64,000 nt of DNA from Candidatus Nealsonbacteria bacterium (lineage in GTDB: Bacteria; Patescibacteriota; Minisyncoccia; Minisyncoccales; RBG-13-36-15). The notes under the pieces were generated by a model. The model was not told the origin of the DNA. It saw only the letters and a program-made list of their open reading frames with translations, and ran no database searches. A program made the position numbers and the translations under genes. The DNA lies in the NCBI GenBank assembly GCA_011050465.1, contig DRFQ01000009.1:128334-192333 (forward strand). The letters run 5' to 3'. Shown piece by piece: positions 27,535-42,724 of the stretch; position 1 is the stretch's first letter, and each line of letters starts with the position of its first letter.

Positions 27535-27539
27535 ATGTT

Positions 27540-28193
27540 TTAATTACGAGATTTTCCTGTACGGGTTCTATAATAACACCACTTACAGTTGTTTGGGTCT
27601 TCTTTCGGAGTAGATCCATTTAGAAGTGCAGAAACCGCTGATATAAAAGAATAAAACCCCTTCATATCTTCCTTTATTTCAAACCAATGTGGCTTTGTCT
27701 TAAAAATAACATCATCTCCAGGAAATAAAATTTCCTCTGGACTTATAGCAACAACACCCATTTTACTCACCTTCCTTGGAGAACCAATTTCTGGATTTTC
27801 TAAAGAAAATTTGTATGCGTGTAATTGAGGAAAAAACTTGTTAAGTTTATCTTCACCAGGATTGGTTATCTTAAAGTCAATAACCGCATGCGTTCCATCC
27901 TCTAAACGAGAAACTATATCAAACCTACCGCTAATATAACAATCATCTGTAGGAGGTATGGGTTTTGATTTCAGAAATCCTTCCTTTACTTCAATTTTTC
28001 CTGCTGGCAATCCAGAATTAATCTCTCTTAAATCCATCCCAATAATCGCGTTTTGCAACAACGAATTCATTTTTGTAAAAACTCCTGGCATTCCTATCGA
28101 TGGAAGAGATACGCCATATTTTATCTTTTGGTAATAACAATACTTACAATCCTCGTAAAGATACTTAAAGTCAGATGGACTTAATTTAAACAT
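27540..28193 (-). CDS. Cas4/RecB-like PD-(D/E)xK nuclease with four Cys
   Basis: CKYC near the N-terminus, GRFD, VIDFK, QLHAYKF and C-terminal CKWC. Confidence 0.8.
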   Translation of the reverse strand: MFKLSPSDFKYLYEDCKYCYYQKIKYGVSLPSIGMPGVFTKMNSLLQNAIIGMDLREINSGLPAGKIEVKEGFLKSKPIPPTDDCYISGRFDIVSRLEDGTHAVIDFKITNPGEDKLNKFFPQLHAYKFSLENPEIGSPRKVSKMGVVAISPEEILFPGDDVIFKTKPHWFEIKEDMKGFYSFISAVSALLNGSTPKEDPNNCKWCYYRTRTGKSRN

Positions 28194-29041: not shown

Positions 29042-29887
29042 CTATCGAGCTGCAGTTTTCGCTCTTGAGATTGAATCAGAAAAAATCATCAACTCGCGAG
29101 CCTTTCTAATCTTGCAAGAATCATAGACACTATACTTCAAACTAAGGCGTTTTCTCATCCTGTCGGGATAAAATTCTCTGATTTTTTTTACTTCATCGTA
29201 AGTCAATACCCAATTATAGTTAGTATTTGTATTTAATAAATCGGCGAGTTTCTTGTGATCATCCTCTTTATAGTGATTGAGATATAACATTGCACCCTTT
29301 TTAAAATATGGGGGATCTAAGTAAATAAAAGTGTTATTTCTATTTAAATATCTTCTCGTAAGTTGTATTCCATCTTTATTTAATACTGAAATACGGTCTT
29401 GAAATTTCCCAATCTTGCGAACCCGTAAAGCCAGTTTTTTCTTATTGTATCGCATATTTATTTTGTACGGACCGTCTTGATTCTTTCCCCCAATCGGCCC
29501 CGCATTCATTACGCCAGATCTATTAGTTCGATTAAGGAAAAAAGTGGCGAACCCTTTTTCAAAAATATTGGCATTCTTATTTAAATAAATTTGCTTTTGT
29601 TTTTTCCATTCAGTAATAGTCACTGGAGTCGTTATAATTTTCTGCGCAAATCGTTCTGAATTCTGGGTTACTGATTTCCAAAATGCATAAATCGTTTTGT
29701 CTAGATCATTTATGACTATTTGCCTGACCCTATTGTCAAACAACAAAGTTAAGGCTACCCCTGCGCCACCCGCATAAGGTTCGACGTAGGTCGGTTTATC
29801 CAAACCAATGGCAACCAAAATTCTTTTAAGCTCGTCTGCTAAAAATGTTTTACCTCCGGGATATCTTAATGGAGAATAAAATTCCAT
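29042..29887 (-). CDS. Dam-family (D12 class) N6-adenine DNA methyltransferase
   Basis: RYPGGK N-terminal motif and IYLDPPY catalytic motif. Confidence 0.9.
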   Translation of the reverse strand: MEFYSPLRYPGGKTFLADELKRILVAIGLDKPTYVEPYAGGAGVALTLLFDNRVRQIVINDLDKTIYAFWKSVTQNSERFAQKIITTPVTITEWKKQKQIYLNKNANIFEKGFATFFLNRTNRSGVMNAGPIGGKNQDGPYKINMRYNKKKLALRVRKIGKFQDRISVLNKDGIQLTRRYLNRNNTFIYLDPPYFKKGAMLYLNHYKEDDHKKLADLLNTNTNYNWVLTYDEVKKIREFYPDRMRKRLSLKYSVYDSCKIRKARELMIFSDSISRAKTAAR

Positions 29888-29894
29888 ATATAAA

Positions 29895-31331
29895 TCACCC
29901 TCTATTAATAATAAGAGATACTTTGATGTTCTTCAGTCTATCGTGGGTAAATGCTCTTTCTAGGGTAGAGTGTTTTTTAATCTTTTTTTCAGGATCATAG
30001 ATAAAGAAATAGATTCTTTTACAATCCGGACGTCTACTGTACTTAACTAAATCATCGTTCAATTCTTTCTCGATATTTTTTCTTATGCTTTTGTCGCCAC
30101 CTTTTCTTTTAAGAGTTGTTTTTACTTCAATAATAGTGCCGTTATCAAGAAGCAAGAAATCGCCTCTTGATGGCGAAGCTCCGTCTGAAGGATTCCATAC
30201 TTCATTCTCTACATCATCAAAAAACATAGTTAAAAGTGCGTGTAATAAATCTTGTACGTCATATTCATCGCCCATATTCAATGTTTCTCTATTCTTATAT
30301 CTATCTTTCAATTGTTCAGCAACAGCATCAAAATGGATTAAAACATGATCGACTATCTCTACCGCCTCTTGGAGTGGATACTTAACTGAGTTCCGTCGTC
30401 TTCTCAGTTTTAGACTTGGAATATTAGGACTTCTTCTTTTGCTTTTCTTTTTTTTCCGTAGCTTCGTTTTAGGAAACTTGATAGGATCTATTTTAGAAAA
30501 TACATTATCTAATAAATAATCTTTTGTAGCTTGTGCGGGTATCTTTTTCTCTCCAACAATATATGGGAGTAATTTCTTCAGATTACTTTCAGCATTTTTT
30601 CTATTTTTAAAGATGATATTCCCTTTATCGTCGATTAAATAATCAATTAGTTTTTTACCGTTTGCGCTTATAATTAACCTTTCAATTGTATTAAATCCTG
30701 TTTTGAGTAACTCCTCTTCTTTTTTTGCGCCCTCAACCTGGTCTAAAATGTATTCGTAGAAATATAATTTGCCTAACTCGTCTTTAAACTTTGCAGTAGT
30801 AGTCCCATATTCCTTAGAGGCGGAATCAACAGTATATTCACCCCCGTCTATCAAATTTCTGTACATTCTTAATCTCTGTAGAACTTGCCACGGTTTTAAG
30901 AGTTGGTTTACGTGAATATCCCAAATTTCCTTTTCTGCTTCTTTACGCGAGGGCGCAATAGTAATCTTTACACTTTTAAGTTGTCTTTTATTAAGAATCT
31001 TACCTAAACCTTCTAATTCCTTTTTGTTCCGTGCACCAGGGGCGAGTTTAGGATTTAATAGCAACTGACAAGCAGCTAATCTCCTATTTCCATCTAATAC
31101 AATTGATTCCCCATTTTCTTCACAAATAATAGCCACAGCGCTCCTGTGGTAACCATTATTAGCAATACTTCTAGCTATCATCATTACACCTTCTTTTTCT
31201 AAAAGATAATTACGTACTTGATTGACATCTTTTAATTCTTTTACGTGTTTTGGCACCCGAGGATTTTGCAAATCCAAGCTTAGTTCACTTATAGATACTT
31301 TTTTATCACGCCATTGTTTTTTTGCATCCAT
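29895..31331 (-). CDS. ParB/Srx-like N-terminal domain fused to a C-terminal PD-(D/E)xK-like nuclease domain
   Basis: IVLDGNRRLAA (ParB-N). C-terminus has DEYDVQD...RGDFLLLDNGTIIEVK (D...ExK). Confidence 0.65.
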   Translation of the reverse strand: MDAKKQWRDKKVSISELSLDLQNPRVPKHVKELKDVNQVRNYLLEKEGVMMIARSIANNGYHRSAVAIICEENGESIVLDGNRRLAACQLLLNPKLAPGARNKKELEGLGKILNKRQLKSVKITIAPSRKEAEKEIWDIHVNQLLKPWQVLQRLRMYRNLIDGGEYTVDSASKEYGTTTAKFKDELGKLYFYEYILDQVEGAKKEEELLKTGFNTIERLIISANGKKLIDYLIDDKGNIIFKNRKNAESNLKKLLPYIVGEKKIPAQATKDYLLDNVFSKIDPIKFPKTKLRKKKKSKRRSPNIPSLKLRRRRNSVKYPLQEAVEIVDHVLIHFDAVAEQLKDRYKNRETLNMGDEYDVQDLLHALLTMFFDDVENEVWNPSDGASPSRGDFLLLDNGTIIEVKTTLKRKGGDKSIRKNIEKELNDDLVKYSRRPDCKRIYFFIYDPEKKIKKHSTLERAFTHDRLKNIKVSLIINRG

Positions 31332-31897: not shown

Positions 31898-32842
31898 TTA
31901 GCCTAAACGTCGAATATACTCTTTGAAAGCTCTCTCTAAACGAATCATTGCATCAATCATTTTGTCTTGTAATTTCTCCCAATTTTCTTTATCGTTCAAT
32001 CCTTTCCCCTTAAATTTAATAGAAATTCGGGACGCACGAGCATTATCTAATCTTTCCCAATTTAGTCTTCCCTTAAACTTTTTTTCAATTTGATTCTTAT
32101 GTTTATATAATTTATCGAAACGAATTTTATTAATATTTGGCTTTATATAATCCTTACCTTTATCAAAATATATTTCACAACCACCGTATTTTTTTGTTAT
32201 TACGTAGCTGTAAATTATCCCTTGTTTGCCAGCACCGGTCCCAATCCAAGAATAAATACCGGGAGTAATATTTGAATGTAAAGATGTCTTTCCTTTAGCT
32301 TTTTCTAAAAGTGCTGTCCAAAATTCTTTTCTTAAAATGTGTCTTTTAGCATATTCCTTTTTCTTTTTACCAATAGTCTCAGACCCTTCTGATGGCCCGG
32401 CGATAATGGAAAATTTGGCAGCCGGATTGGAATTTCCTATTTTGTATGCTTCTATTTGTACTAAATAAAAAGCTGTCTCTGGGCCAAATTCATTCAACCA
32501 GTCAATTGCTCTTTCGTGCTCCTGCCTAGGGTTACTTGATATCCAGATAGCAATTTTTGCATCTAAATTTGCTAGATAAGTTAAAATTTTACCCAAATGT
32601 TCATGGTTTGTTTTCTCTAATTGATTTTCTATAACTACTTTCTGTCCGTTTTCGTCTTCTGCAATGATATCCACAGAAAAAGAACCCGCGTCACCTTCTC
32701 TGTCAATGGCTGTTAAATCCATATCTAATTCTTCTCCCAAAATTTCAATGTTATCGAAAAGCCAAGAGGTGAAATCTCTAGCTTCATTCTTCCAAACTTC
32801 CCTTAAAGGAACTTTTTTTATTCTTTCTATATGCTTTTTCAT
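31898..32842 (-). CDS. DUF4268-type protein with an N-terminal PD-(D/E)xK-like module
   Basis: FSVDIIAEDENGQKVVIENQLEKTNHEHLGKILTY pattern. Confidence 0.65.
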   Translation of the reverse strand: MKKHIERIKKVPLREVWKNEARDFTSWLFDNIEILGEELDMDLTAIDREGDAGSFSVDIIAEDENGQKVVIENQLEKTNHEHLGKILTYLANLDAKIAIWISSNPRQEHERAIDWLNEFGPETAFYLVQIEAYKIGNSNPAAKFSIIAGPSEGSETIGKKKKEYAKRHILRKEFWTALLEKAKGKTSLHSNITPGIYSWIGTGAGKQGIIYSYVITKKYGGCEIYFDKGKDYIKPNINKIRFDKLYKHKNQIEKKFKGRLNWERLDNARASRISIKFKGKGLNDKENWEKLQDKMIDAMIRLERAFKEYIRRLG

Positions 32843-32878: not shown

Positions 32879-33736
32879 CTAAGCCGGGCAGTAATTTGAA
32901 AGCACTTTCTTATAACTATTCGTGTAGTTTTCGCTCTTTCTGAAATATTTTCTATCAACTGTCCCTTCTTTTATGTGATATTCTATCCCTTTCTCCTCGC
33001 AGAATTTTATAACTCTGTAGGCGCAATCATTGTAGAATGTTTTGTAACTATCAAAATAAGTAGTCAAGGCATTATAATTCCATCTACCGAAAACTATTTT
33101 ATCGACAAAAGCTATTTTTTCCAATATTTTGGTTAGATCCTGTTCAATAAGGTTAGGCGTAGGATAAGGTTCCATACTTACCCAAGTTTTCAAACCTTTA
33201 TTATGTAAGAACTTAAGGGTTTTTACTCTTTTTTCTATCGACACAGCGAATGGCTCTTTACTTCTTCTGAATTTTTCAGACAAAGTGATTATAGTCGAAC
33301 CGTATTCATTATCCCTGCCGTAAATATTTTTTTTAGTCAAAATTTTAGGATATATACCTTTACTTATAGTTACCACTTTTATATTGTCTTCATTCAATCT
33401 TTTGATAATTTCTAAGCTAAGATCTACTACTTCTTTTTGTTTATACATAAAAGGGTCTGTCGAAAAACACAAGTAGACATATTTTATATCTTTTTTATAT
33501 TTCGGAATTTCTAGATCTAATAATTCTAAGGCGTTGCTAACAATTTTAGGTCTTATCCATTCTTTGTAATTTTTAATGATCCCACACCTTTTTTTCATCA
33601 GCATTGCATAGCAAGGATAAGTACACCCATGAGAACATCCCTCAACGTGATTAATGCAATAATCAGCGTATTCTACCCCGCTTTTATATAAAAGAGATTT
33701 TCTAATGATTCTCTGCATACTATTATTATATATCAA
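32879..33736 (-). CDS. radical-SAM-like protein with a non-canonical Cx3Cx3C motif
   Basis: INHVEGCSHGCTYPCYAM, versus the canonical Cx3Cx2C in the paralog 22932..23717. Overlaps the upstream gene by 11 nt. Confidence 0.65.
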   Translation of the reverse strand: MIYNNSMQRIIRKSLLYKSGVEYADYCINHVEGCSHGCTYPCYAMLMKKRCGIIKNYKEWIRPKIVSNALELLDLEIPKYKKDIKYVYLCFSTDPFMYKQKEVVDLSLEIIKRLNEDNIKVVTISKGIYPKILTKKNIYGRDNEYGSTIITLSEKFRRSKEPFAVSIEKRVKTLKFLHNKGLKTWVSMEPYPTPNLIEQDLTKILEKIAFVDKIVFGRWNYNALTTYFDSYKTFYNDCAYRVIKFCEEKGIEYHIKEGTVDRKYFRKSENYTNSYKKVLSNYCPA

Positions 33737-34616
33737 AAAGAGCCTTCTGTGGATTTCTCGCCCTGAAGACTTTGGTTTTTTTCTCCCAGAATTCGATCCC
33801 CCTTTCGTGTTTACTGAATAAAATTAAATAATATAAGGAGGTGTTTTTAATATTTTTAAATATGACCAGTGACGGACTCGAGAAATAACCCAAACCTTTT
33901 ATCATATCGATATAATTCTTACATAAATTTCTGATATTTATTTCTTTACTATTTCCCCAGGTTTTTTTATTAGCAATGTCTTTCCATCCAGGATGGAACT
34001 TATCTAATTTCTTAGAATTTAATTTTCTAATTAAGGCAGCAGAAACCGCTCTTTCAACAGAAGCTATTGGGTAATTCACTATTAAGTCTATCTTCCTTTT
34101 TGCTAATTGTTTGTAAGAACTGAAATGAAATTGCAAACTGTCGGGATCTATAACGGCTAAACTTAAAGAATTATCAGAAATAGATTTTTTTATAATGTTT
34201 CCTATAGCCAAATTACAGTCTTCGTTATAATATTCTACACTGTTTTTTTCTTTTGCTCTTTGTTTTAAGCTGTTTATACAGACTGGATTTTTGTCTATTA
34301 AAAAATATTTTGTAAATTTATTCTTTAAATTTATTGCCTCTAGGCAGGTTCCATCTATTTCTTTTAATCCCTCTCTAATAATACACTTTCCTGGGCCCGA
34401 AAATAAATCTATATAATAAAGTTTTGGCCATTTCTTTTTCATCGCCCCCGAAAAAATATCAATGAAATATTTCAAATGTTCAATTTTATCCTTTGACCAA
34501 TAACCGGAACAACGCAAAGCCAACCCGTCATTTTTAGATTTATATTTTTGACATATTCCATCGTTATTATTTACGCAATTACCGTTTTTATAAAACTTAC
34601 ATTTTTTCATAATCAA
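33726..34616 (-). CDS. TcmP-like (three-Cys-motif partner protein) candidate
   Basis: YWSKDKIEHLKYFIDIF...KLYYIDLFSGPGKC fits the remembered W.x.K...L..Y...Y(I/V)D.F(A/S)G.G pattern. Has an extra Cys-rich N-terminus. Confidence 0.55.
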   Translation of the reverse strand: MIMKKCKFYKNGNCVNNNDGICQKYKSKNDGLALRCSGYWSKDKIEHLKYFIDIFSGAMKKKWPKLYYIDLFSGPGKCIIREGLKEIDGTCLEAINLKNKFTKYFLIDKNPVCINSLKQRAKEKNSVEYYNEDCNLAIGNIIKKSISDNSLSLAVIDPDSLQFHFSSYKQLAKRKIDLIVNYPIASVERAVSAALIRKLNSKKLDKFHPGWKDIANKKTWGNSKEINIRNLCKNYIDMIKGLGYFSSPSLVIFKNIKNTSLYYLILFSKHERGIEFWEKKTKVFRARNPQKALFDI

Positions 34617-34688: not shown

Positions 34689-35777
34689 TTATTTTCCAGA
34701 TTTAGTTCGATTGTCTTGTTTACACAACATCTGGCAATTCTCTGAAATAGTTTTTCCACCTTCATGCCAAGGCTTTATGTGGTCAGCTTCCATTTCTTCT
34801 ATTTCGAAATACTTCTTGCATTTTGTGCAGACACCTTTTTGTCTCTCATACGCCTCTCGTTTCATTTTGTCAGTAAACGCGCGTATTGAGAGATATTTTT
34901 CTTGTCTAGTCAATACATAAGGGTAAATGCCTGGTTTTTTCGTTACGTCTTCATCTTGCATTAATTCAGCAATCTCGGTTTCTAGTTTATCGACACTTAG
35001 TTTTTTGTCTTTGAATTGATTGTATGGTTCACCCCATTGCACGCTCTTCATCTCTCTGCGATAATTCGTGAAAGTCTTCCTCACCCACGCTATTACATTT
35101 TGGAAATAGTCCCACAGCTCGTCGGCATTCATGTATTGTTGGTGTTTGGCCATGTAATCTTCAATTTTTCCATAGTTGATCCACGAAAGAACAGTTTCCA
35201 AATATTCTTGTCGGATTGGTTTACCGCTGACTAATTGCCCACCGTCATTTGCCAGCAGATACGCAGCGCAGTTTGTTTTGCTAAATTTTAATTTAGCGTC
35301 GGAGAGCCATGGTCCAGTGTAAACTGCATTCCTCAGTTCTTGGTCGGTCAGTTTTTCACCGGCGATATTGATAATTCTAAACCAATCAAGGCGTTCTTTG
35401 TCTGTGCCCTCGCAGATGTAAATCATGAGCTTATAATCCAAAATCTGTTTTTTTTCTTCGCCAGTTAAGTTGTGGAAATAGAGATTATCCAGTGAAAAAT
35501 CTCCGTTCACATATTGCCCAATGCTAATGGTGCGCTGTTGACCATCAAGCATCTCAAAACAATTTTTGTTTTTCAACCAATACATTACATTGAGTGGAAA
35601 ATTCTTGCGTATGGATTCGATAACTTCTTTGCGTTGTTTATCGTTATAGATAAATTCACGTTGATATTTTGGGCGAATATCGAGTTTATCACCATAAGCC
35701 ACAACACCTTCTTCGGCACTGTCTTTGTAGTCCTCGATCACTTCGCGTATTGAAATTTGGTGTAGTTTAATTTTCAT
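34689..35777 (-). CDS. DUF262 (GmrSD N-terminal, ParB-like) domain fused to an HNH endonuclease
   Basis: IRPKYQREF and LDGQQRT (DUF262). C-terminal CTKCKK...ADHIKPWHEGGKT...NCQMLCKQDNRTK (HNH). Confidence 0.85.
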   Translation of the reverse strand: MKIKLHQISIREVIEDYKDSAEEGVVAYGDKLDIRPKYQREFIYNDKQRKEVIESIRKNFPLNVMYWLKNKNCFEMLDGQQRTISIGQYVNGDFSLDNLYFHNLTGEEKKQILDYKLMIYICEGTDKERLDWFRIINIAGEKLTDQELRNAVYTGPWLSDAKLKFSKTNCAAYLLANDGGQLVSGKPIRQEYLETVLSWINYGKIEDYMAKHQQYMNADELWDYFQNVIAWVRKTFTNYRREMKSVQWGEPYNQFKDKKLSVDKLETEIAELMQDEDVTKKPGIYPYVLTRQEKYLSIRAFTDKMKREAYERQKGVCTKCKKYFEIEEMEADHIKPWHEGGKTISENCQMLCKQDNRTKSGK

Positions 35778-35786
35778 ACTAATTCT

Positions 35787-36830
35787 TTATTTTTTATTTT
35801 TAATTAAAATGCGCGCGTAGATTTCTTTGCCGTCTATCGTAAACCTTTTTCCGTAATTTGGATTGTCTTCGACATACCTGTCTATGCCGATAATCTCAAA
35901 CTGCTTGGGATTATATTTATCAACAAATGTAATTGGAACACCCATTACACCTTTGTAGTCCATTGGAATATCAACATACCGATTTATATTGATAGCATCA
36001 TAGTCGTCATACTTGGGATATTCTTCTGAGCTGTACTTTTTATACAAAGTAAGTTCTTCGTGACGTTTTGTTGTATCAAGATTTGTAAACCACGCGATAT
36101 TGCCCATGCTAAAATATTTCACACCATCTTCAATTTTTATTCTCGACTCAGTTTGTATGTCATAGTTCTCGGGAACTTGAAACCACTTTGTGCCGCCATT
36201 GTCATATCCAAGCCATAACCTATTTTCTTTAATTAGTTTGAAAATTTCTTTGTACGTAATGGCGTTTTGATTACCAAGGATCAAAAACTTTCTGTTGTAT
36301 TCCATAAGTTGCTCAACGTATTCACGAAATAGTGAAAACGGGGGGTTTGTTACCACTATATCAGCTCGTTTGAGCAGTTCTGTGCACTCATCGCTTCGAA
36401 AATCACCTTCTCTATTTAAGGGGGTTGCGGTGTTTTTGTCGTGCTTTAGTAAATACTTTACATCGTCGAGGTTTACCGCACCATCGCCGTCGATATCCGA
36501 CACTTCTTTGATTTCGATTTTGAACGGCTCCTTGCCCGTCGGCTTTAGTCCTTCCACCTCAAACAGTGGCAATTGCCCGCCGGCAATCGGCGATTTAACA
36601 TAACTCGTAGTGATGAGTTTTGTTAACCCCAGCGCGTTGAAATTAGCAGCAAAATACTTAAAGAAGTTGCTCTCGAACGGATCATCGCAGTTACAGTACA
36701 CAACTTTACCACGGAATTGGTCCTTGTAGTGCTTCGCCTCTTTTTCAATATCAGAAAGCTGCGTATAAAACTCGTCTTTCTTTGCTTTGTTTGCTCTAAG
36801 GAAAGATGTATTTAAAGATTTAGTTTTCAT
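35787..36830 (-). CDS. EcoRI-methylase-like N6-adenine DNA methyltransferase
   Basis: DEFYTQLSDIEKE...YCNCDDPFESNFFKYF and DIVVTNPPFSLFREY. Confidence 0.8.
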   Translation of the reverse strand: MKTKSLNTSFLRANKAKKDEFYTQLSDIEKEAKHYKDQFRGKVVYCNCDDPFESNFFKYFAANFNALGLTKLITTSYVKSPIAGGQLPLFEVEGLKPTGKEPFKIEIKEVSDIDGDGAVNLDDVKYLLKHDKNTATPLNREGDFRSDECTELLKRADIVVTNPPFSLFREYVEQLMEYNRKFLILGNQNAITYKEIFKLIKENRLWLGYDNGGTKWFQVPENYDIQTESRIKIEDGVKYFSMGNIAWFTNLDTTKRHEELTLYKKYSSEEYPKYDDYDAININRYVDIPMDYKGVMGVPITFVDKYNPKQFEIIGIDRYVEDNPNYGKRFTIDGKEIYARILIKNKK

Positions 36831-36905
36831 AAGGTTATTTTAATTAATCTACCTTAATTTTGCCACTTTTGGATTATTTTGTCTATTTATCAAAGATCTA
36901 AATAC

Positions 36906-36935
36906 TCGACATTTGTCGACATTTGTCGACATTTT
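36906..36935. repeat. three 10-bp-phased TGTCGACA palindromes (iteron/operator-like)
   Basis: TCGACATTTGTCGACATTTGTCGACATTTT, 76-105 bp upstream of the methylase ATG. Confidence 0.8.
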
Positions 36936-37040: not shown

Positions 37041-37388
37041 TTAGAGGGCTGCGAAAAGTTCTTTTAGTGCAGGAAGCTCCTCTTTGCAAATAGTAAGGTG
37101 TCGAGATGGCCATCCGCCAAAACTCATTTTTGATTTATTCCCTATCAATAGTCTGTAATAGTATTCTTCTTCTACTAATCGTGCTACCCTTGGTGCTTTT
37201 TCTGTTGCTATGGAGCCTCTAAGCCGAACTTCTCCTACGATTCTTGTTTTATTTCCCCTTTCCTTTTCCATTTTTGGGTCTACTCTACGAATAGTCTCAA
37301 CGAAAGCTGAAATCGAGTGTGTTCCGCTTCTTCTTCTGGCAGAACGACGAGCACTTAGAACTATTGCACTTGTTGTTCTTTTTGCCAT
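37041..37388 (-). CDS. hypothetical protein (115 aa), cassette a
   Basis: Track ORF trimmed: the -10 box sits at 37432-37437, and GGAGGTGAAAACAATG gives MAKRTTSAIV... Confidence 0.55.
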   Translation of the reverse strand: MAKRTTSAIVLSARRSARRRSGTHSISAFVETIRRVDPKMEKERGNKTRIVGEVRLRGSIATEKAPRVARLVEEEYYYRLLIGNKSKMSFGGWPSRHLTICKEELPALKELFAAL

Positions 37389-37431
37389 TGTTTTCACCTC
37401 CACAGGTTGTATAAGAGCTATTTGATACTTC

Positions 37432-37460
37432 ACCCTATTACATCCTTAGTTTTTTGTCAA
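37432..37460 (-). promoter_or_regulatory. P1-family promoter (cassette a)
   Basis: Minus strand reads TTGACAAAAAACTAAGGATGTAATAGGGT. Confidence 0.65.
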
Positions 37461-37462
37461 AA

Positions 37463-37491
37463 CAAAAAGGCCTCTGGCTGGTGCCTGAGGC
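37463..37491 (-). terminator. T1-family terminator (cassette b)
   Basis: Identical hairpin to cassette a. Its T-run runs straight into the -35 of promoter a. Confidence 0.8.
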
Positions 37492-37534
37492 TATGGAAAG
37501 AACAAAAAAACCTTGTATTGTATGTGAAGGTTCT

Positions 37535-37777
37535 TTAATACCCCGTCGTAAAAATTGTAATCGTTATAAAAAACGATAATAATACATATAGTAAAATGAA
37601 GGTTCTCTTGCCTTCTTGCAACCAAAAGGTGAACGAGGCTATCCACATACTAACTGCCATAATAAAATGCAAGAAAATGGAACCAAAAAAGATATTTAAC
37701 ATACTCATAACAACCACAAAAAAAATAATTCTTAGGGCGATACTTCTCTTCTCTATACTTTGATCCATTGTCCTCAT
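37535..37777 (-). CDS. small membrane protein (80 aa, 3 TM), cassette b
   Basis: Hydrophobic throughout; own promoter and terminator. Confidence 0.55.
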   Translation of the reverse strand: MRTMDQSIEKRSIALRIIFFVVVMSMLNIFFGSIFLHFIMAVSMWIASFTFWLQEGKRTFILLYVLLSFFITITIFTTGY

Positions 37778-37813
37778 TTCCTAGTTTGGAACGAACTAAC
37801 GAAGAACTGCTTA

Positions 37814-37842
37814 ACTCTATTACAACCTTAGTTATTTGTCAA
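37814..37842 (-). promoter_or_regulatory. P1-family promoter (cassette b)
   Basis: Minus strand reads TTGACAAATAACTAAGGTTGTAATAGAGT. Confidence 0.65.
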
Positions 37843-37843
37843 A

Positions 37844-37867
37844 CCCTTCGATAAACTCAGGGTAAAC
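37844..37867. repeat. GC-rich mini-repeat copy (inverted orientation)
   Basis: CCCTTCGATAAACTCAGGGTAAAC, wedged between terminator c and promoter b. Confidence 0.6.
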
Positions 37868-37900
37868 AAAAAGGCCTCGATGCTCTGCTGAGCCGAGGCT
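37866..37900 (-). terminator. terminator (cassette c)
   Basis: Minus strand reads GCCTCGGCTCAGCAGAGCATCGAGGCC plus TTTTTGTTT. Confidence 0.7.
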
Positions 37901-37917
37901 TGTACAGAATATGTCTC

Positions 37918-38235
37918 TTAGTTCAAAAGTTTTTGAAGATCTTCTCCTTGTAGAACTTGCCGTTGACCTTCTGTTGGCTCAAAAGTTAGCTGTTCTGAAA
38001 CCCAGATAAATAGGGATCCTCTTTGAAGAAATCTTTCTCTTTGAAGAAAAATAAATCTTCCCTTTGGAGTTACGATCGAGACCTCACGGTTACAAAGATC
38101 GCTTGGTATTCCAAAGGGATCGCCGAACGTTACAACTTGAAGATCAGAAAGACTCAAAGCAATATTGTTGGTTGCTGCCAGTTTTTCTGCGGCTTTCATC
38201 TCTTCTGAAATTTCGGTTAGGTCGATTCTGTCCAC
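37918..38235 (-). CDS. hypothetical protein (105 aa), cassette c
   Basis: GTG start 6 nt after AAGGAGG. Confidence 0.55.
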   Translation of the reverse strand: MDRIDLTEISEEMKAAEKLAATNNIALSLSDLQVVTFGDPFGIPSDLCNREVSIVTPKGRFIFLQRERFLQRGSLFIWVSEQLTFEPTEGQRQVLQGEDLQKLLN

Positions 38236-38282
38236 GTTTCCCCTCCTTATTTAGGAATGAATGAACTAATTAACGATTTTTA

Positions 38283-38311
38283 ATTATATTACATCCTTAG
38301 TTATTTGTCAA
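38283..38311 (-). promoter_or_regulatory. P1-family promoter (cassette c)
   Basis: Minus strand reads TTGACAAATAACTAAGGATGTAATATAAT. Confidence 0.7.
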
Positions 38312-38451
38312 CTCAAAATAGCCCTATTTTTGGAAAAAATCAAATTCCTTCCCCACCCCGCCTATCGATATCTGTCTACCGACAAATCCACAAAAAATAC
38401 CATAGCGGGAACAAGCTAAAAAATTATTAGGGCTTTAACGACGTGCAACCG

Positions 38452-38480
38452 TTGACAAATCACTAAAAATATAATATGGT
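38452..38480 (+). promoter_or_regulatory. P1-family promoter (cassette d)
   Basis: TTGACAAATCACTAAAAATATAATATGGT. The 5'UTR (CTTATACAACGGAGGTAAAAACAATG) is homologous to that of cassette a. Confidence 0.65.
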
Positions 38481-38522
38481 TAGATATCAATAGATAGCCC
38501 TTATACAACGGAGGTAAAAACA

Positions 38523-38717
38523 ATGAAAGGAAGCGAAGTAGTAGGAAAGTGCCCACACTGTGGAGGAGACATTATTGACCGAAAAAAGCTCGTGGGTATA
38601 GTTGCCATTTTGATGCAAAGTCCGACACCAGAACTGGCTGTTGAAAAAATAACAGAGAATGAAAAGCCATATTTCTGCGGCGATTGTAGTGAGGAATTCG
38701 ACACTGTTCCGTCGTAA
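38523..38717 (+). CDS. zinc-ribbon protein (64 aa), cassette d
   Basis: CPHCGG...CGDC. Confidence 0.6.
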   Translation: MKGSEVVGKCPHCGGDIIDRKKLVGIVAILMQSPTPELAVEKITENEKPYFCGDCSEEFDTVPS

Positions 38718-38742
38718 CCGATTAGAGAGCTTTCGTTCATAT

Positions 38743-38776
38743 CCTCAGGCGCAAGCCAGAGGCCTTTTTTGTTTTT
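38743..38776 (+). terminator. T1-family terminator (cassette d)
   Basis: CCTCAGGCGCAAGCCAGAGGCC plus TTTTTTGTTTTT. Confidence 0.8.
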
Positions 38777-38847
38777 CTCTTGATCCCCTACCACTTTTTA
38801 TCTTTTATGTTTACATTCTATCTCAAACCTAAAAAAGTGGTGGGGGG

Positions 38848-38875
38848 TTGACTAAAGCTGTAGAAGAATTATCAT
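38848..38875 (+). promoter_or_regulatory. promoter of structured element copy 1
   Basis: GGTGGGGGGTTGACT-N16-TATCAT, about 85% identical to 44487-44520 on the minus strand. Confidence 0.6.
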
Positions 38876-38881
38876 TAACTC

Positions 38882-39079
38882 AGGAGAGAGGAGGTGGTCG
38901 CTTTTACCTTCGCGAACAACCCAGGCTGGGGCGGCCTGGGACGAATGACCTCCCTCTGGTCATTGGTCACTTTCTCTCTCCTATCAACTCTTTACAGTTC
39001 TTTCTACGACAAGCTCTTTGGGACGTATGTCCCACATCGCAGGGCCACCACCAACAACAACATCGGTGGCCTTTTTTTT
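38882..39079 (+). ncRNA. structured non-coding element, copy 1 (about 200 nt)
   Basis: 15-bp closing helix GGAGAGAGGAGGTGG / CCACTTTCTCTCTCC. Inner hairpins CCCAGGC/GCCTGGG and AATGACC/GGTCATT. 3' hairpin TGGGAC-GTAT-GTCCCA, then terminator GGCCACC...GGTGGCC plus T8. Confidence 0.5.
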
Positions 39080-39106
39080 GACAAATCATTAAGGATGTAA
39101 TATGGT
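39078..39106 (+). promoter_or_regulatory. P1-family promoter
   Basis: TTGACAAATCATTAAGGATGTAATATGGT; its -35 overlaps the preceding T-run. Confidence 0.65.
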
Positions 39107-39151
39107 TAAGTAGCAATAAACAGCACATTCCCAAGAAGAAGGGAATCAAAG

Positions 39152-39550
39152 ATGGCTCAAAGCCCATCGGAAATAGAAAAGAAAACCCGCCTTAAAGAAT
39201 TATGGATGTTACTATTTGGTAACCCAATCAATCTAACTGACCCCGAGATTGAAAGATTACTTGAGTCTGAAAAAGAACTTAGAACAATTTTGCATTTTAC
39301 CTACAGTGGATTTCCCCATCAGATAGAAAGAGTAAAAAAACATCATGCCAAAAAGAAAGAGCTATCTGAACTGCCTACAGAGAAGTTGGTGGAAATGAAA
39401 TGTGCGATAGAAGAAAATAGACTGGCTGTTCTTAGGTCAACCAACGAGGAAGAACTTTCAGATTCATTCTTTGAGGCTCCTCCCATTGACTCCAATGAAC
39501 ACATCCTGAATGAGATTCTAAAAGAACGGGGTGTTGACTGGCGAAAATAG
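39152..39550 (+). CDS. hypothetical protein (132 aa), cassette e
   Basis: Own P1 promoter and terminator. Confidence 0.55.
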   Translation: MAQSPSEIEKKTRLKELWMLLFGNPINLTDPEIERLLESEKELRTILHFTYSGFPHQIERVKKHHAKKKELSELPTEKLVEMKCAIEENRLAVLRSTNEEELSDSFFEAPPIDSNEHILNEILKERGVDWRK

Positions 39551-39588
39551 AAAGATTCTTAAACAGGCAATCCCGATTCGATATATAA

Positions 39589-39622
39589 GCCTCTGGCTCA
39601 CGCTAAGAGGCCTTTTTGTTTT
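39589..39622 (+). terminator. T1-like terminator (cassette e)
   Basis: GCCTCTGGCTCACGCTAAGAGGCC plus TTTTTGTTTT. Confidence 0.75.
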
Positions 39623-39720
39623 CCGGCTTGCCTCGGGCTTGAATTCTTTTATTTAACATGATAGGCTAAAAATCCAAACATAGCACCTTTACAGCTTAGA
39701 CCGAAAAGGGGGTAAGAAAA

Positions 39721-40293
39721 GTGAAATACCTCTTGTTGCTTTATCTAATCCAGCCCTACATAGATGTTTTCATTGGCGAAGAACCGCCCGACGTAAAGAA
39801 AAAATTTGCTGCCCTCTATAAAAAGATTGTGCGAGAAAGATATCCAGGGTTCCAAGTAGTTTGTGTATTTTTTTCTAAACCAAGCGAAAAAAAAGAACCT
39901 GACCTTTCTCAGAAGTGGGATATTTTTTCACTTGAAGAAAGCTATACTATAGAGGCCTGTGGAGTAACATTCGCTGATCATTGTGATAATCAAACATATC
40001 CCAAAGAAAACGACATTCTTGAATTATGTCCTGGCCCAATTGATGAATTGATTGTTAGCGGATTCCATTTTTCTGATTGCGTAGAAAAAATTGCCAAGTT
40101 TGCCCACAAGCAAGGCATTCAAGTTTTTGTAGATGAAGATCTAACAGAATTATTCTTTTATGGAATAAAAATGGGAGTTCCAATTTCTCGTGAAGCAAGC
40201 ATAAGAAGAACAAAAAAGTTGTTCAGAGAAAGTTTGCTTCTGGATTTTGTGCGCGAAAACCGTAAAGGGAGACCATGGCTGGTCCAGCTTTAA
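39721..40293 (+). CDS. hypothetical protein (190 aa), weak isochorismatase/cysteine-hydrolase-like C-terminal pattern
   Basis: GTG start after AAGGGGG. LIVSGFHFSDCVEKIAKFAHKQGIQVFVDEDL resembles the isochorismatase-fold core. Promoter CCTCGGGCTTGAAT at about 39633-39670. Confidence 0.5.
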   Translation: MKYLLLLYLIQPYIDVFIGEEPPDVKKKFAALYKKIVRERYPGFQVVCVFFSKPSEKKEPDLSQKWDIFSLEESYTIEACGVTFADHCDNQTYPKENDILELCPGPIDELIVSGFHFSDCVEKIAKFAHKQGIQVFVDEDLTELFFYGIKMGVPISREASIRRTKKLFRESLLLDFVRENRKGRPWLVQL

Positions 40294-40493
40294 GCTGAGT
40301 CACCAATACGACTTGGCTTTTTTTGTTCTTAATGACCAATAGTAGCTCGCCGTTTGTAACCTAAGAAGCCATGGATAATGGTCTGCTAATCTCTCGACTC
40401 CGCTCAGGGTGGTAAGCCTATCGAACCATTGGCTTAAGTTTGAGATGGAGGCAAGGATTTAATGCCCGAGAGTTGTTGCCCCTCGTGAAAAAC

Positions 40494-40522
40494 TTGACAA
40501 ATTCAAAGTATGGGAGTATAAT
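40494..40522 (+). promoter_or_regulatory. consensus promoter of structured element copy 2
   Basis: TTGACA-N17-TATAAT. Confidence 0.65.
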
Positions 40523-40528
40523 GCTATT

Positions 40529-40797
40529 ATTGACTGATATTCGTTCTTTTTGAAAAAATGTTGTCAGCTATTCAGCAAATTGTTCATCTGAAAAGGTGGT
40601 CAGCTTGCTGGACAGATGAAAGGAGACGTTCGCCAATAGCCCAAGATGGTGGAGCTGTCGCAGGCGCCGGCCAGCTTGGGCGCACTAGATCAACCAGATC
40701 ATCCGCGCGTATACCTGCCATCTGTTCGGCACAGCACTTTTCGAGGACTTATGTCCTCACCTATAGGGTCACCCATAACAACAACGGTGGCCCTTTT
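40529..40797 (+). ncRNA. candidate non-coding transcript sharing the 3' module of copy 1
   Basis: GAGGAC-TTAT-GTCCTC hairpin plus GGGTCACC..AACAACAAC..GGTGGCCC terminator. There are two compensatory changes relative to 39019-39071. Confidence 0.35.
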
Positions 40798-40829
40798 ACT
40801 TTCTACCTATCTTTTAGATGGGTTTTTGT

Positions 40830-40858
40830 TTGACAAATAACTAGAAATGTAATAATAT
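40830..40858 (+). promoter_or_regulatory. P1-family promoter
   Basis: TTGACAAATAACTAGAAATGTAATAATAT. Confidence 0.6.
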
Positions 40859-40903
40859 CGAATTAAATAGTACATTTGTCGCCATAACGACAAGGAGGTA
40901 GTA

Positions 40904-41083
40904 ATGGCGAACGAGATTTTATTATGCGGCGGCGCAGTTTTACAAGGCGTCGAGAGAGCGGTTGATGAGGGGGGTGAGGATCTTGTTGTCACCCTAGAAA
41001 ATGTAGGGACAGTTCTTGTTCCTAAAGGGAATATAGCAAAGATTGACATACTAATAGAAACCGAAGAAGAACCCGACGAATAA
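40904..41083 (+). CDS. hypothetical acidic protein (59 aa, below the track cutoff), cassette f
   Basis: AAGGAGGTAGTAATG. MANEILLCGGAVLQGVERAVDEGGEDLVVTLENVGTVLVPKGNIAKIDILIETEEEPDE. Terminator at 41124-41151. Confidence 0.55.
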   Translation: MANEILLCGGAVLQGVERAVDEGGEDLVVTLENVGTVLVPKGNIAKIDILIETEEEPDE

Positions 41084-41123
41084 ATAATTTCTAGTTCTTT
41101 ACTTACTATTCAATCCTTCTTCA

Positions 41124-41151
41124 AGGTCTCGCTCAGAGACCTTTTTGTTTT
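41124..41151 (+). terminator. intrinsic terminator (cassette f)
   Basis: AGGTCTC-GCTCA-GAGACCT plus TTTTGTTTT. Confidence 0.75.
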
Positions 41152-41171
41152 CAAAAGGAGTTATTGGGCTT

Positions 41172-41246
41172 GCCCTCCCAAATTCGCCGCAGAGGCGAAC
41201 TTAGGCGGGCTTGACTTATTTATTGAGGTTGTTATGATATAAAATC
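41172..41246 (+). repeat. 75-bp inverted repeat, left arm (hairpin plus promoter)
   Basis: GCCCTCCCAAATTCGCCGCAGAGGCGAACTTAGGCGGGCTTGACTTATTTATTGAGGTTGTTATGATATAAAATC. 74/75 identical to the reverse complement of 45285-45359. Confidence 0.9.
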
Positions 41247-41283
41247 GTAGAGGAAGGACAGCACTTTCAAGGAGGTTAAAAAG

Positions 41284-41568
41284 GTGGCAGAGACAACCGA
41301 AAACAAACGGCAAAGTGGACAAGTCAAAGATGGAAAATGGTTGGTGCTAACCGAGAGTACTAGAAAGCCAGACAAGTGCTATACACATACCTGTGGCACA
41401 GAAATTTTAGGCGAAAAAATAGCTCATCCTGTTTGGGATGGTCCGACTCCACTTTCTGGACACGGTCAGTGCGAATATGAAATGGTTCCTTATTGTCCAA
41501 AATGCGAAAATAAACCAAACCCTCAAGGGGTGCCGATAACTCCCAAGGGTAGCCATCGTAATCTTTGA
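41284..41568 (+). CDS. zinc-ribbon protein, paralog of 2054..2371
   Basis: GTG start 8 nt after AAGGAGG; shared C..CG..IL...VPYCP.CE..P pattern. Confidence 0.6.
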   Translation: MAETTENKRQSGQVKDGKWLVLTESTRKPDKCYTHTCGTEILGEKIAHPVWDGPTPLSGHGQCEYEMVPYCPKCENKPNPQGVPITPKGSHRNL

Positions 41569-41752
41569 CCTAATTACTTTATAGGTTCTTGGTAGAAGTT
41601 CTTTTAATTAATCCGATATAAACCGCAATCCGGCTCAAGGTCCTCCCGACACTCGTCAGGAGGCTTTTTTATTTCCCCGATACGCTCACAGGACAGAAAC
41701 TAAAAAAAACGGCACGAAATTATCGTACCGACCAAAACAGCAACACGTATTT

Positions 41753-42724
41753 TTAATGTACCTGCTTTTGCCTGATTATTTCCCGCAATACTCCCTCAAC
41801 TAATTTCAGGCTTTTTTCGTCTATTATAGAGACAGCCAGCACTTCTTTTCCTGTTTTTTTGAGGAGGGCCATTTTCTTTTTAATGTCTTTTTCGGGCAGT
41901 AAGTCGGTTTTGGTCAGAAAAACGTATTCCGGCTTTAATAAAAGCTCCTTATTGTAAACCTCAAGTTCATTCCTGATGGTTTTGTAGTCTGCCAAAGGAT
42001 CTTGGGATTCAGACGAAATAAAATGGAAAAGGATTTTTGTTCTTTCAATGTGCCGAAGGAATTTAATGCCTAAACCCTTGCCTAAAGAAGCTCCCTCAAT
42101 AAGGCCCGGGACGTCAGCCAAAACGAGCCCGTAATAAACTCCCAAGTTGGGATTCAGGGTCGTAAAAAGATAATTAGCCACTTTACTTTTAGCCTTGGTC
42201 AGCTCGTTTAATAAACTGGATTTACCGACATTCGGCAAGCCGACAAACCCAACATCAGCTATCATCTTCAATTCCAATCTCAATTCGTATTCCTGCCCCA
42301 AAGAACCTTCTTCAAATTCCCTGGGAGTCGTATTAATAGATGATCTAAATTTAAAGTTGCCCCGCCCTCCTTTGCCGCCTTCAGCCATCAATGAACGCTG
42401 CCCTACAAAAACAATTTCTGAATCCTGTTTCAAGAACAAATTATGAATGACCGTACCCACGGGTACCTTTAAGAAAAGGTCTTTACCGTCTGCGCCGTCG
42501 TTGAATCCCTTTTTGCCGTTTTCCCCATTTTCAGCTGACAGTTCTTTTTTGTAGCGAAATTGATTCAAAACACTTAGATCAGAAACCCCTTCAAGATAAA
42601 CACTGCCTCCCCGACCGCCGTCCCCACCGGTAGGCCCGAGAGTCATTTTAACCTTACTGAAAGCCACGGCCCCCCTGCCGCCGTCACCAGCTTTCACCCT
42701 AATTTTGACGTCGTCAATCAGCAT
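41753..42724 (-). CDS. obg: GTPase Obg
   Basis: Gly-rich Obg fold (GGDGGRGG, GGKGGRGN) and GLPNVGKSS G1 motif. Confidence 0.93.
   Translation of the reverse strand: MLIDDVKIRVKAGDGGRGAVAFSKVKMTLGPTGGDGGRGGSVYLEGVSDLSVLNQFRYKKELSAENGENGKKGFNDGADGKDLFLKVPVGTVIHNLFLKQDSEIVFVGQRSLMAEGGKGGRGNFKFRSSINTTPREFEEGSLGQEYELRLELKMIADVGFVGLPNVGKSSLLNELTKAKSKVANYLFTTLNPNLGVYYGLVLADVPGLIEGASLGKGLGIKFLRHIERTKILFHFISSESQDPLADYKTIRNELEVYNKELLLKPEYVFLTKTDLLPEKDIKKKMALLKKTGKEVLAVSIIDEKSLKLVEGVLREIIRQKQVH

Follow-up and report, generated by a model that had tools for sequence, protein, structure and literature searches.

The locus and its two genes

We examined a stretch of 64,000 nucleotides (nt) of contig DRFQ01000009.1 from a Candidatus Nealsonbacteria bacterium, hereafter the window, and within it two adjacent genes at positions 34689 to 36830 that encode an EcoRI-family DNA methylase and a nuclease combining a DUF262 domain with an HNH domain. 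This span is filled exactly by two co-oriented minus-strand open reading frames (ORFs) of the ORF list, with the methylase upstream. The genes and their principal features are:

35787..36830, minus strand: EcoRI-family N6-adenine DNA methyltransferase, 347 amino acids (aa), first gene of the operon (Pfam, PADLOC, identity)
36336..36347, minus strand: catalytic motif IV NPPF of the methylase, residues 162-165 (translation)
35778..35786, minus strand: spacer of 9 nt from methylase stop to nuclease start, AGAATTAGT (direct sequence reading)
34689..35777, minus strand: DUF262-HNH nuclease, 362 aa, presumed restriction subunit (Pfam, PADLOC, AlphaFold2 model)
35319..35678, minus strand: ParB/Srx-fold DUF262 (GmrSD_N) domain of the nuclease, residues 34-153 (Pfam, translation)
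35532-35546, minus strand: DGQQR motif (translation)
34830..35318, minus strand: all-helical middle region, residues ~154-316, candidate DNA-recognition module (AlphaFold2 model)
34698..34829, minus strand: HNH (His-Me finger) nuclease domain, residues 317-360 (Pfam, profile alignment)

The locus was recovered in ENA, JGI, NCBI (GCA_011049515.1) and Logan data, with both genes called in each, and its independent assembly in these four sources rules out an assembly artefact. A Candidatus Nealsonbacteria metagenome-assembled genome encodes a protein that is 100% identical to the methylase, and the Pfam E-values of both proteins are far beyond chance. An earlier model-made reading of the DNA letters, here called the original prediction, had placed the nuclease 9 nt downstream of the methylase, and direct reading of the spacer (35778-35786) bears this out.

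Over its full length the methylase matches Pfam EcoRI_methylase PF13651 (4.6e-136), and its residues 2-347 align to positions 2-329 of the 332-position PADLOC profile MTase_II PDLC03297 (5.5e-125). Across residues 1-347 it is 47.6% identical to the methylase adjoining the 'type-2 restriction enzyme EcoRI' on E. coli pU90-3. The translated NPPF motif falls within residues 141-200, where conservation among 66 methylases is 75-78%, and together with the full-length family match it confirms the initial description of an EcoRI-M-like adenine methylase. Variable segments occupy residues 81-140, 221-240 and 321-340, with a mean identity of 34% versus 67% in the core.

Domains, active sites and predicted fold of the nuclease

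Comparison with Pfam identified GmrSD_N PF03235 (1e-16, residues 34-153) and HNH PF01844 (2e-11, residues 317-360) in the nuclease and no DUF1524 (PF07510) at E<=0.01, in agreement with the claim that a DGQQR-bearing DUF262 domain is here joined to HNH rather than to DUF1524. The entire protein, residues 1-362, aligns to positions 1-372 of the 372-position PADLOC profile REase_II PDLC03418 (1.5e-130). The DUF262 motifs are QR (39-40), DGQQR (78-82), FxxxN (133-137) and QELRN (146-150), while the HNH core reads CxxC...DH...N...CxxDN, with C317, C320, D332-H333, N347, C352, D355 and N356 taken from the translation. Between these domains, residues 156-300 have a mean pairwise identity of 64%.

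Residue conservation was assessed in 66 family members and in a broader alignment, whose 29 sequences share 35-85% identity with the window protein. Q39 and R40, D78, G79, Q80, Q81 and R82, F133, N137, Q146 and E147, and N150 are invariant in the 66 members, and the same DUF262 pocket residues are nearly invariant in the broader alignment. The HNH domain is similarly constrained: C317, C320, D332, H333, N347 and C352 are invariant in the 66, residue 356 is Asn in 63 of them, and the HNH residues are invariant or nearly so in the 29 sequences too. Absence of the HNH catalytic residues, which the original prediction had raised as an objection to itself, is therefore not what we see, with D332, H333 and N347 all present. 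The fourth zinc ligand varies among the 66 sequences (Asp in 41, Cys in 21, His in 4), with Asp in the clade of the window protein; all three residues can bind metal. A profile of the family also aligns with the Geobacter HNH nickase 4h9d (3.9e-07), with the DH, N and N positions in register.

An AlphaFold2 model built from the 29-sequence alignment (mean predicted local distance difference test score 92.7) has a mixed alpha/beta N-terminal domain, a middle region made of helices only and a C-terminal beta-beta-alpha unit. The closest solved folds found with Foldseek were 6sdk (ParB-CDP, E 7e-4), 7ol9 (Noc), 7bnr (ParB-CTPgS) and 7bnk. These ParB and Noc matches had E-values of 7e-4 to 6e-3 and probabilities of 0.93-0.99, with low TM-scores, 0.21 by query and ~0.35 by target; the ~270 alignment columns, from constructs of N-terminal and helix-turn-helix domains, exceed the length of Pfam GmrSD_N and are not mapped to query residues. 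The 4h9d HNH nickase was also among the fold matches, and BrxU 7p9k (E 0.017) and SspE 7drr (E 0.41) were weak ones. Among viral predicted structures (BFVD), GmrSD_N-annotated proteins of ~370 aa from giant viruses and phages matched the model over its full length, and GmrSD_N proteins of ~370-480 aa from Catovirus, Indivirus, Hokovirus and Yasminevirus did so at E 4e-10 to 2e-7 and a TM-score of ~0.45.

Linkage and co-divergence of the two genes

We compared 83 related loci, comprising the best 80 of 594 confirmed nuclease relatives (from a set with one genome per prokaryotic species), which are 64-81% identical, and 3 plasmid loci. In 79 of the 83, the nuclease gene is preceded on its own strand by the gene of an EcoRI-type methylase. 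Three of the four loci lacking it are cut by a contig end: L033 and L041 start inside the nuclease gene, and L018 ends in a truncated RhuM gene and resembles L010, where RhuM lies between methylase and nuclease. As a consequence, 80 loci are informative and 79 of these are linked. The neighbourhood survey that had been proposed with the original prediction thus shows that the two genes do not occur independently in relatives.

The association extends beyond proximity. In 65 complete pairs the genes most often overlap by 4 nt or are spaced by 0 nt or +1 nt, and the identity matrices of methylase and nuclease correlate (Mantel r=0.66, a value reached by 0/2000 permutations). A methylase accompanies the nuclease in all of the best 25 nuclease-bearing plasmids, down to 38% identity, and the cultured Flavobacterium phage laban6-1 has both genes, overlapping by 4 nt. 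One predicted metagenomic protein of 688 aa (P0142) contains EcoRI_methylase, GmrSD_N and HNH in a single chain; this could be a natural fusion of methylase and nuclease or, because the genes often overlap, a frameshift artefact. On plasmid pBC of B. choerinum (L088), insertion of the cmx resistance gene splits the nuclease and leaves the methylase intact, which is the order of decay expected of a restriction-modification (R-M) pair.

Specific co-variation of the variable segments of the methylase with the middle domain of the nuclease was considered and rejected, as these segments co-varied specifically with no nuclease region; evidence of specificity switching was not found. The correlation of these segments with the middle domain (r=0.45-0.46) was no stronger than that with the N-terminal domain, while that of the methylase core was stronger (r=0.64-0.73).

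Several relatives carry extra genes between methylase and nuclease. RhuM-family genes (PF13310) are listed for L010, L038 and L018 and DUF2130 genes (PF09903) for L006 and L012, and the inserted genes of L054, L034 and L070 include unannotated ORFs.

Spread of the cassette and its place among catalogued systems

Bacterial carriers of the nuclease include Patescibacteria, in which the cassette is particularly frequent, Chloroflexota, Cyanobacteria, Bacteroidota, Acidobacteriota, Actinomycetota, Bacillota and Proteobacteria, and archaeal carriers include Methanobacterium, Woesearchaeota and Pacearchaeota. More than 8,000 near-full-length sequences of the nuclease family passed a word filter, and the family forms 471 clusters at 50% identity with E<=1e-30. 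Both proteins match PADLOC Type II profiles end to end, so that the family already stands in the catalogue as Type II R-M; the window copy is one more instance and no discovery of kind. The novelty implied by the original prediction was thus overstated for a very large family that has a dedicated REase_II model in PADLOC, even if the RefSeq name of the nuclease remains 'DUF262 domain-containing protein'.

Identities of 64-81% that span bacteria and archaea and very remote phyla indicate frequent horizontal transfer. This pattern may reflect a primarily selfish addiction or mobility cassette, in which post-segregational killing stabilizes plasmids or islands and there is little anti-phage role, as might the occurrence of the pair in phage and on many small plasmids, including non-mobilizable ones of 7-11 kilobases (kb). 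We regard this explanation as unlikely. Type II systems commonly do both, such that restriction stays possible, and the window pair itself resides in a chromosomal island with four other PADLOC-recognized defence modules.

Probable restriction-modification logic

The evidence for linkage, co-divergence and end-to-end matches to Type II R and M profiles favours the first of two interpretations in the original prediction, a classical R-M-like pair assembled from Type IV components. In this arrangement, which we consider probable, the methylase places N6-methyladenine (m6A) on self DNA, and DNA lacking it is cut by the DUF262-HNH protein. The methylase, transcribed first, would N6-methylate adenines of a target sequence in host DNA; the ParB-fold DUF262 domain and the helical middle region would engage DNA without this mark; and the canonical HNH domain would then cut it. 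We infer from ordinary R-M logic that cleavage is blocked by methylation.

Several observations weigh against this arrangement. Our searches of the literature yielded no biochemical, methylome or phage-challenge data and no recognition sequence for the family, and every described DUF262 nuclease that we found is modification-dependent or modification-sensing rather than modification-blocked. Neither did oligonucleotide avoidance indicate a target site in the window and 588 kb from 80 related loci, where palindromic 4- and 6-mers were compared with maximal-order Markov expectations. Depletion was generic alone (GGCC, GATC, ACGT, CATG and CTAG) and there was no specific avoidance of GAATTC or AATT, with 26 occurrences of GAATTC observed in the window versus 28.6 expected. 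Two loci are also awkward: L038 alone is truly without an EcoRI-type methylase within 4 kb on either side of an intact nuclease, and the methylase of a Chryseobacterium taklimakanense plasmid (L095) has two frameshifts, which could be sequencing error, beside an intact nuclease.

A host could tolerate such loci only if its own unmethylated DNA were spared by the nuclease, and in conjunction with the action of characterized DUF262 nucleases on modified DNA these loci lend some weight to a Type IV-like, modification-dependent nuclease. The methylase would then be unrelated to it, or would write the very mark that is sensed, producing a self-activating abortive-infection or addiction device. We nevertheless judge this to be very improbable. 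The 79/80 linkage, constant gene order, overlaps and co-divergence are not expected of unrelated genes, while a nuclease that cut the mark of its own constitutively co-transcribed methylase would kill the cell, yet the pair is stable in hundreds of chromosomes. Loss of the nuclease with retention of the methylase on B. choerinum pBC is a further difficulty for this explanation. Genomic logic hence argues against a nuclease that needs modified DNA.

Comparison with known systems

The pair resembles the Type II R-M systems of PADLOC in having separate, adjacent and co-oriented R and M genes with linkage kept and active-site residues intact, but differs in having an R subunit whose ParB/Srx nucleotide-pocket signature is intact. 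The EcoRI system shares a methylase of the same Pfam family (PF13651). On EcoRI plasmids, however, this methylase is paired with an annotated EcoRI-family type II endonuclease, in the order R then M, whereas here it precedes an unrelated DUF262-HNH protein, in the order M then R. Because the partner beside the pU90-3 methylase is unrelated to DUF262-HNH, one methylase family appears to serve two quite different nucleases.

Likeness to GmrSD, BrxU and SspE, nucleases of the Type IV and phosphorothioate-sensing kinds, consists of an N-terminal DUF262 domain with QR, DGQQR and FxxxN followed by a C-terminal His-Me finger nuclease; QR, (I/V)DGQQR and FxxxN are listed as motifs of the GmrSD family (PMC4619093). 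The nuclease domain in those proteins is DUF1524, whereas here it is a zinc-ribbon HNH of PF01844 in a protein of about half their length. By profile, too, BrxU 7p9k and SspE 7drr are only weakly similar (0.008 over 36 residues). GmrSD stands alone, in contrast to the nearly constant pairing of the window family with a methylase, and while GmrSD, BrxU and SspE need modification, the polarity here would be opposite, with cleavage blocked by modification. As the DUF1524 domain and the stand-alone habit are both lacking, the pair would, by its sequence, not be a member of the GmrSD family.

Relationships to other systems are partial. The nuclease shares with the CTP (cytidine triphosphate)-dependent clamps ParB and Noc a ParB/Srx N-terminal fold with a GxxR-type nucleotide motif, DGQQR being invariant, but has an HNH domain attached and no sign of a C-terminal dimerization domain in the predicted model. 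PD-Lambda-5, described by Vassallo et al. 2022 as a compacted 'RM+Abi' system (PMC9519451), is likewise a two-gene pair of adenine methylase and nuclease, and its copy in the window has a DGNRR ParB-like motif by eye; it differs in having a Dam/MethyltransfD12 methylase and a DpnII-MboI PD-(D/E)XK nuclease, and the DUF262-HNH protein was unmatched by the PD-Lambda-5 profiles of PADLOC. Matches to Menshen NsnA (1.1e-26, residues 4-208) and PD-T4-2_A (1.8e-12) cover the DUF262 region only, and no match to NsnB or NsnC was present among ten neighbouring proteins scanned with PADLOC. Full-text literature searches found no paper describing a pair of DUF262-HNH nuclease and EcoRI-family methylase. 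A 2026 paper (PMC13091528) reports that REBASE lists a DUF262 gene of B. animalis subsp. lactis as the putative Type II restriction endonuclease Ban8145ORF124P, with the motif RTCAGG. No B. lactis protein came up in a search that started from the B. choerinum methylase, and membership of Ban8145ORF124P in this nuclease family could not be verified; we mention it as a lead only.

A possible nucleotide requirement

Within the R-M arrangement, the role of the DUF262 pocket is the principal point of contention. Two features, the ParB-like fold and pocket motifs that are completely conserved, favour nucleoside triphosphate (NTP) gating, in which the pocket binds or hydrolyses NTP and thereby licenses the HNH domain, by analogy with GmrSD, BrxU and SspE; we put the likelihood of such gating at a little under even. 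If it is true, the enzyme is not a strict NTP-independent Type II enzyme. The invariance of DGQQR, a feature of sequence, raises doubt as to whether cleavage could be NTP-independent, while the small size of the protein and its 'Type II' label may point against an NTP need.

Alternatively, the pair may be strictly classical Type IIP/IIS, with DUF262 as a DNA-binding or dimerization scaffold and Mg2+-only cleavage at a fixed position with no nucleotide. This differs from the arrangement above solely in NTP dependence and shares its R-M logic. It accords with the PADLOC label 'Type II restriction enzyme', with a length of 362 aa that leaves out the long helical linkers of GmrSD, BrxU and SspE, with the weak structural similarity to those proteins and with an HNH domain that is an ordinary zinc ribbon like those of simple nickases such as 4h9d. 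A pocket signature invariant in 66 sequences and nearly so in 29 is, however, hard to explain for a scaffold, and the nearest solved folds are nucleotide-bound ParB and Noc. We see this classical enzyme as a serious possibility that falls short of an even chance.

We tentatively propose, at somewhat less than even odds, that the family could instead represent a distinct R-M class, in which a minimal ParB-fold NTPase, possibly a CTP- or GTP (guanosine triphosphate)-gated switch or sliding clamp, loads on sites lacking m6A and licenses the attached HNH nuclease. If so, this would be the first DUF262 nuclease that is blocked rather than triggered by DNA modification, and 'Type II' would be the wrong label for the family. 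Its length of 362 aa would also make the enzyme the smallest tractable model of a ParB/Srx nucleotide state coupled to DNA cleavage in defence systems.

The surrounding island

The pair lies in a dense defence island. A low G+C content (0.31-0.34), below that of the flanks, characterizes the stretch at 21-35 kb, and the neighbouring modules, all on the minus strand, are:

25561-28193, minus strand: UvrD/GajB-like helicase (657 aa) and a 217-aa protein with weak Cas4-like matches
29042-31331, minus strand: ParB-like nuclease (478 aa) and Dam-family methylase pair (PADLOC, Pfam)
31898-32842, minus strand: DUF4268 protein, 314 aa, matching PADLOC PDC-S11 end to end (5.9e-125)
32879-34616, minus strand: TcmP and radical-SAM/DUF5131-like gene pair, resembling PADLOC candidate PDC-M41 A/B

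The 478-aa protein combines a DGNRR-type N-terminus (by eye) with a DpnII-MboI restriction endonuclease domain, matches PD-Lambda-5_A (7.9e-27) and belongs to the PD-Lambda-5 copy, which is 3.4 kb away from the methylase-nuclease pair. Directly downstream of the DUF262-HNH nuclease lies TcmP, a 'three-Cys-motif partner' (TIGR04474, 4.7e-32), whose gene is overlapped by the next, which encodes the small radical-SAM/DUF5131-like protein. The DUF4268 protein has a weak NucS-like N-terminal match, and the helicase and the 217-aa protein possibly form another defence module here.

The second interpretation in the original prediction, that the methylase protects against a neighbouring system, fared worse than the first. 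According to this explanation the methylase shields the host from another nuclease of the island, such as the PD-Lambda-5-like ParB-like/DpnII-MboI protein, and DUF262-HNH acts independently. Several other nucleases do lie within 7 kb. TcmP, radical SAM, DUF4268 and both PD-Lambda-5 genes, however, were present in 0/83 related loci, against 79 with the methylase, and the PD-Lambda-5-like nuclease has its own adjacent Dam-family methylase (PD-Lambda-5_B, 1.6e-106). We therefore consider protection against a neighbour to be extremely improbable. Because no other island gene of the window recurs in related loci and the two genes occur together on plasmids and in phage, the pair is an autonomous, mobile module of two genes.

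Two further features belong to the methylase gene and its upstream region:

36462..36497, minus strand: DIDGDGAVNLDD loop of the methylase, residues 112-123, within the variable insert 81-140 (EF-hand or dockerin-like)
36905..36934, minus strand: three tandem copies of AAATGTCGAC, exact or near-exact, with period 10 (possible local operator, speculative)

A strict D.[DN].[DN]G.[ILV] pattern plus acidic residue occurs in 23 of 66 aligned methylases, with looser variants of the loop (e.g. DGDGAFDLRDI) in further rows by eye, and residues 94-130 give a weak calmodulin match in the PDB. A calcium-binding loop would be unusual in a DNA methylase. The AAATGTCGAC repeats lie ~75-105 nt upstream of the methylase start, with a GTCGA core in each copy, and also score as a terminator-like hairpin on the plus strand. 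The three copies are confined to the window locus: none of the other 65 loci has the repeat ahead of its methylase gene, and the 8-mers shared there are A/T-rich words only. The repeat is therefore no feature of the family, and an operator common to all these upstream regions was rejected. Between the methylase and obg (41753-42724), the 4.7 kb at 37041-41700 contains only short ORFs (<=190 aa) for which no Pfam family is recorded, and its G+C is slightly higher (~0.40). Scanning the window for Rfam families and tRNAs revealed no RNA gene.

Significance

Many defence nucleases contain DUF262/ParB-fold domains, among them GmrSD, BrxU, SspE, Menshen, Dazbog and PD-T4-2. The characterized DUF262 domains sense modified DNA, and a cassette with its own methylase would put this fold on unmodified DNA. 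The residual interest of the window locus lies at the level of the family, whose compact ParB-fold nuclease presumably works on DNA that lacks modification. Knowledge of the recognition site and nucleotide requirement of this nuclease would guide the naming of the 'DUF262 domain-containing protein' beside an EcoRI-family methylase, and the cassette could give a new compact nuclease reagent.

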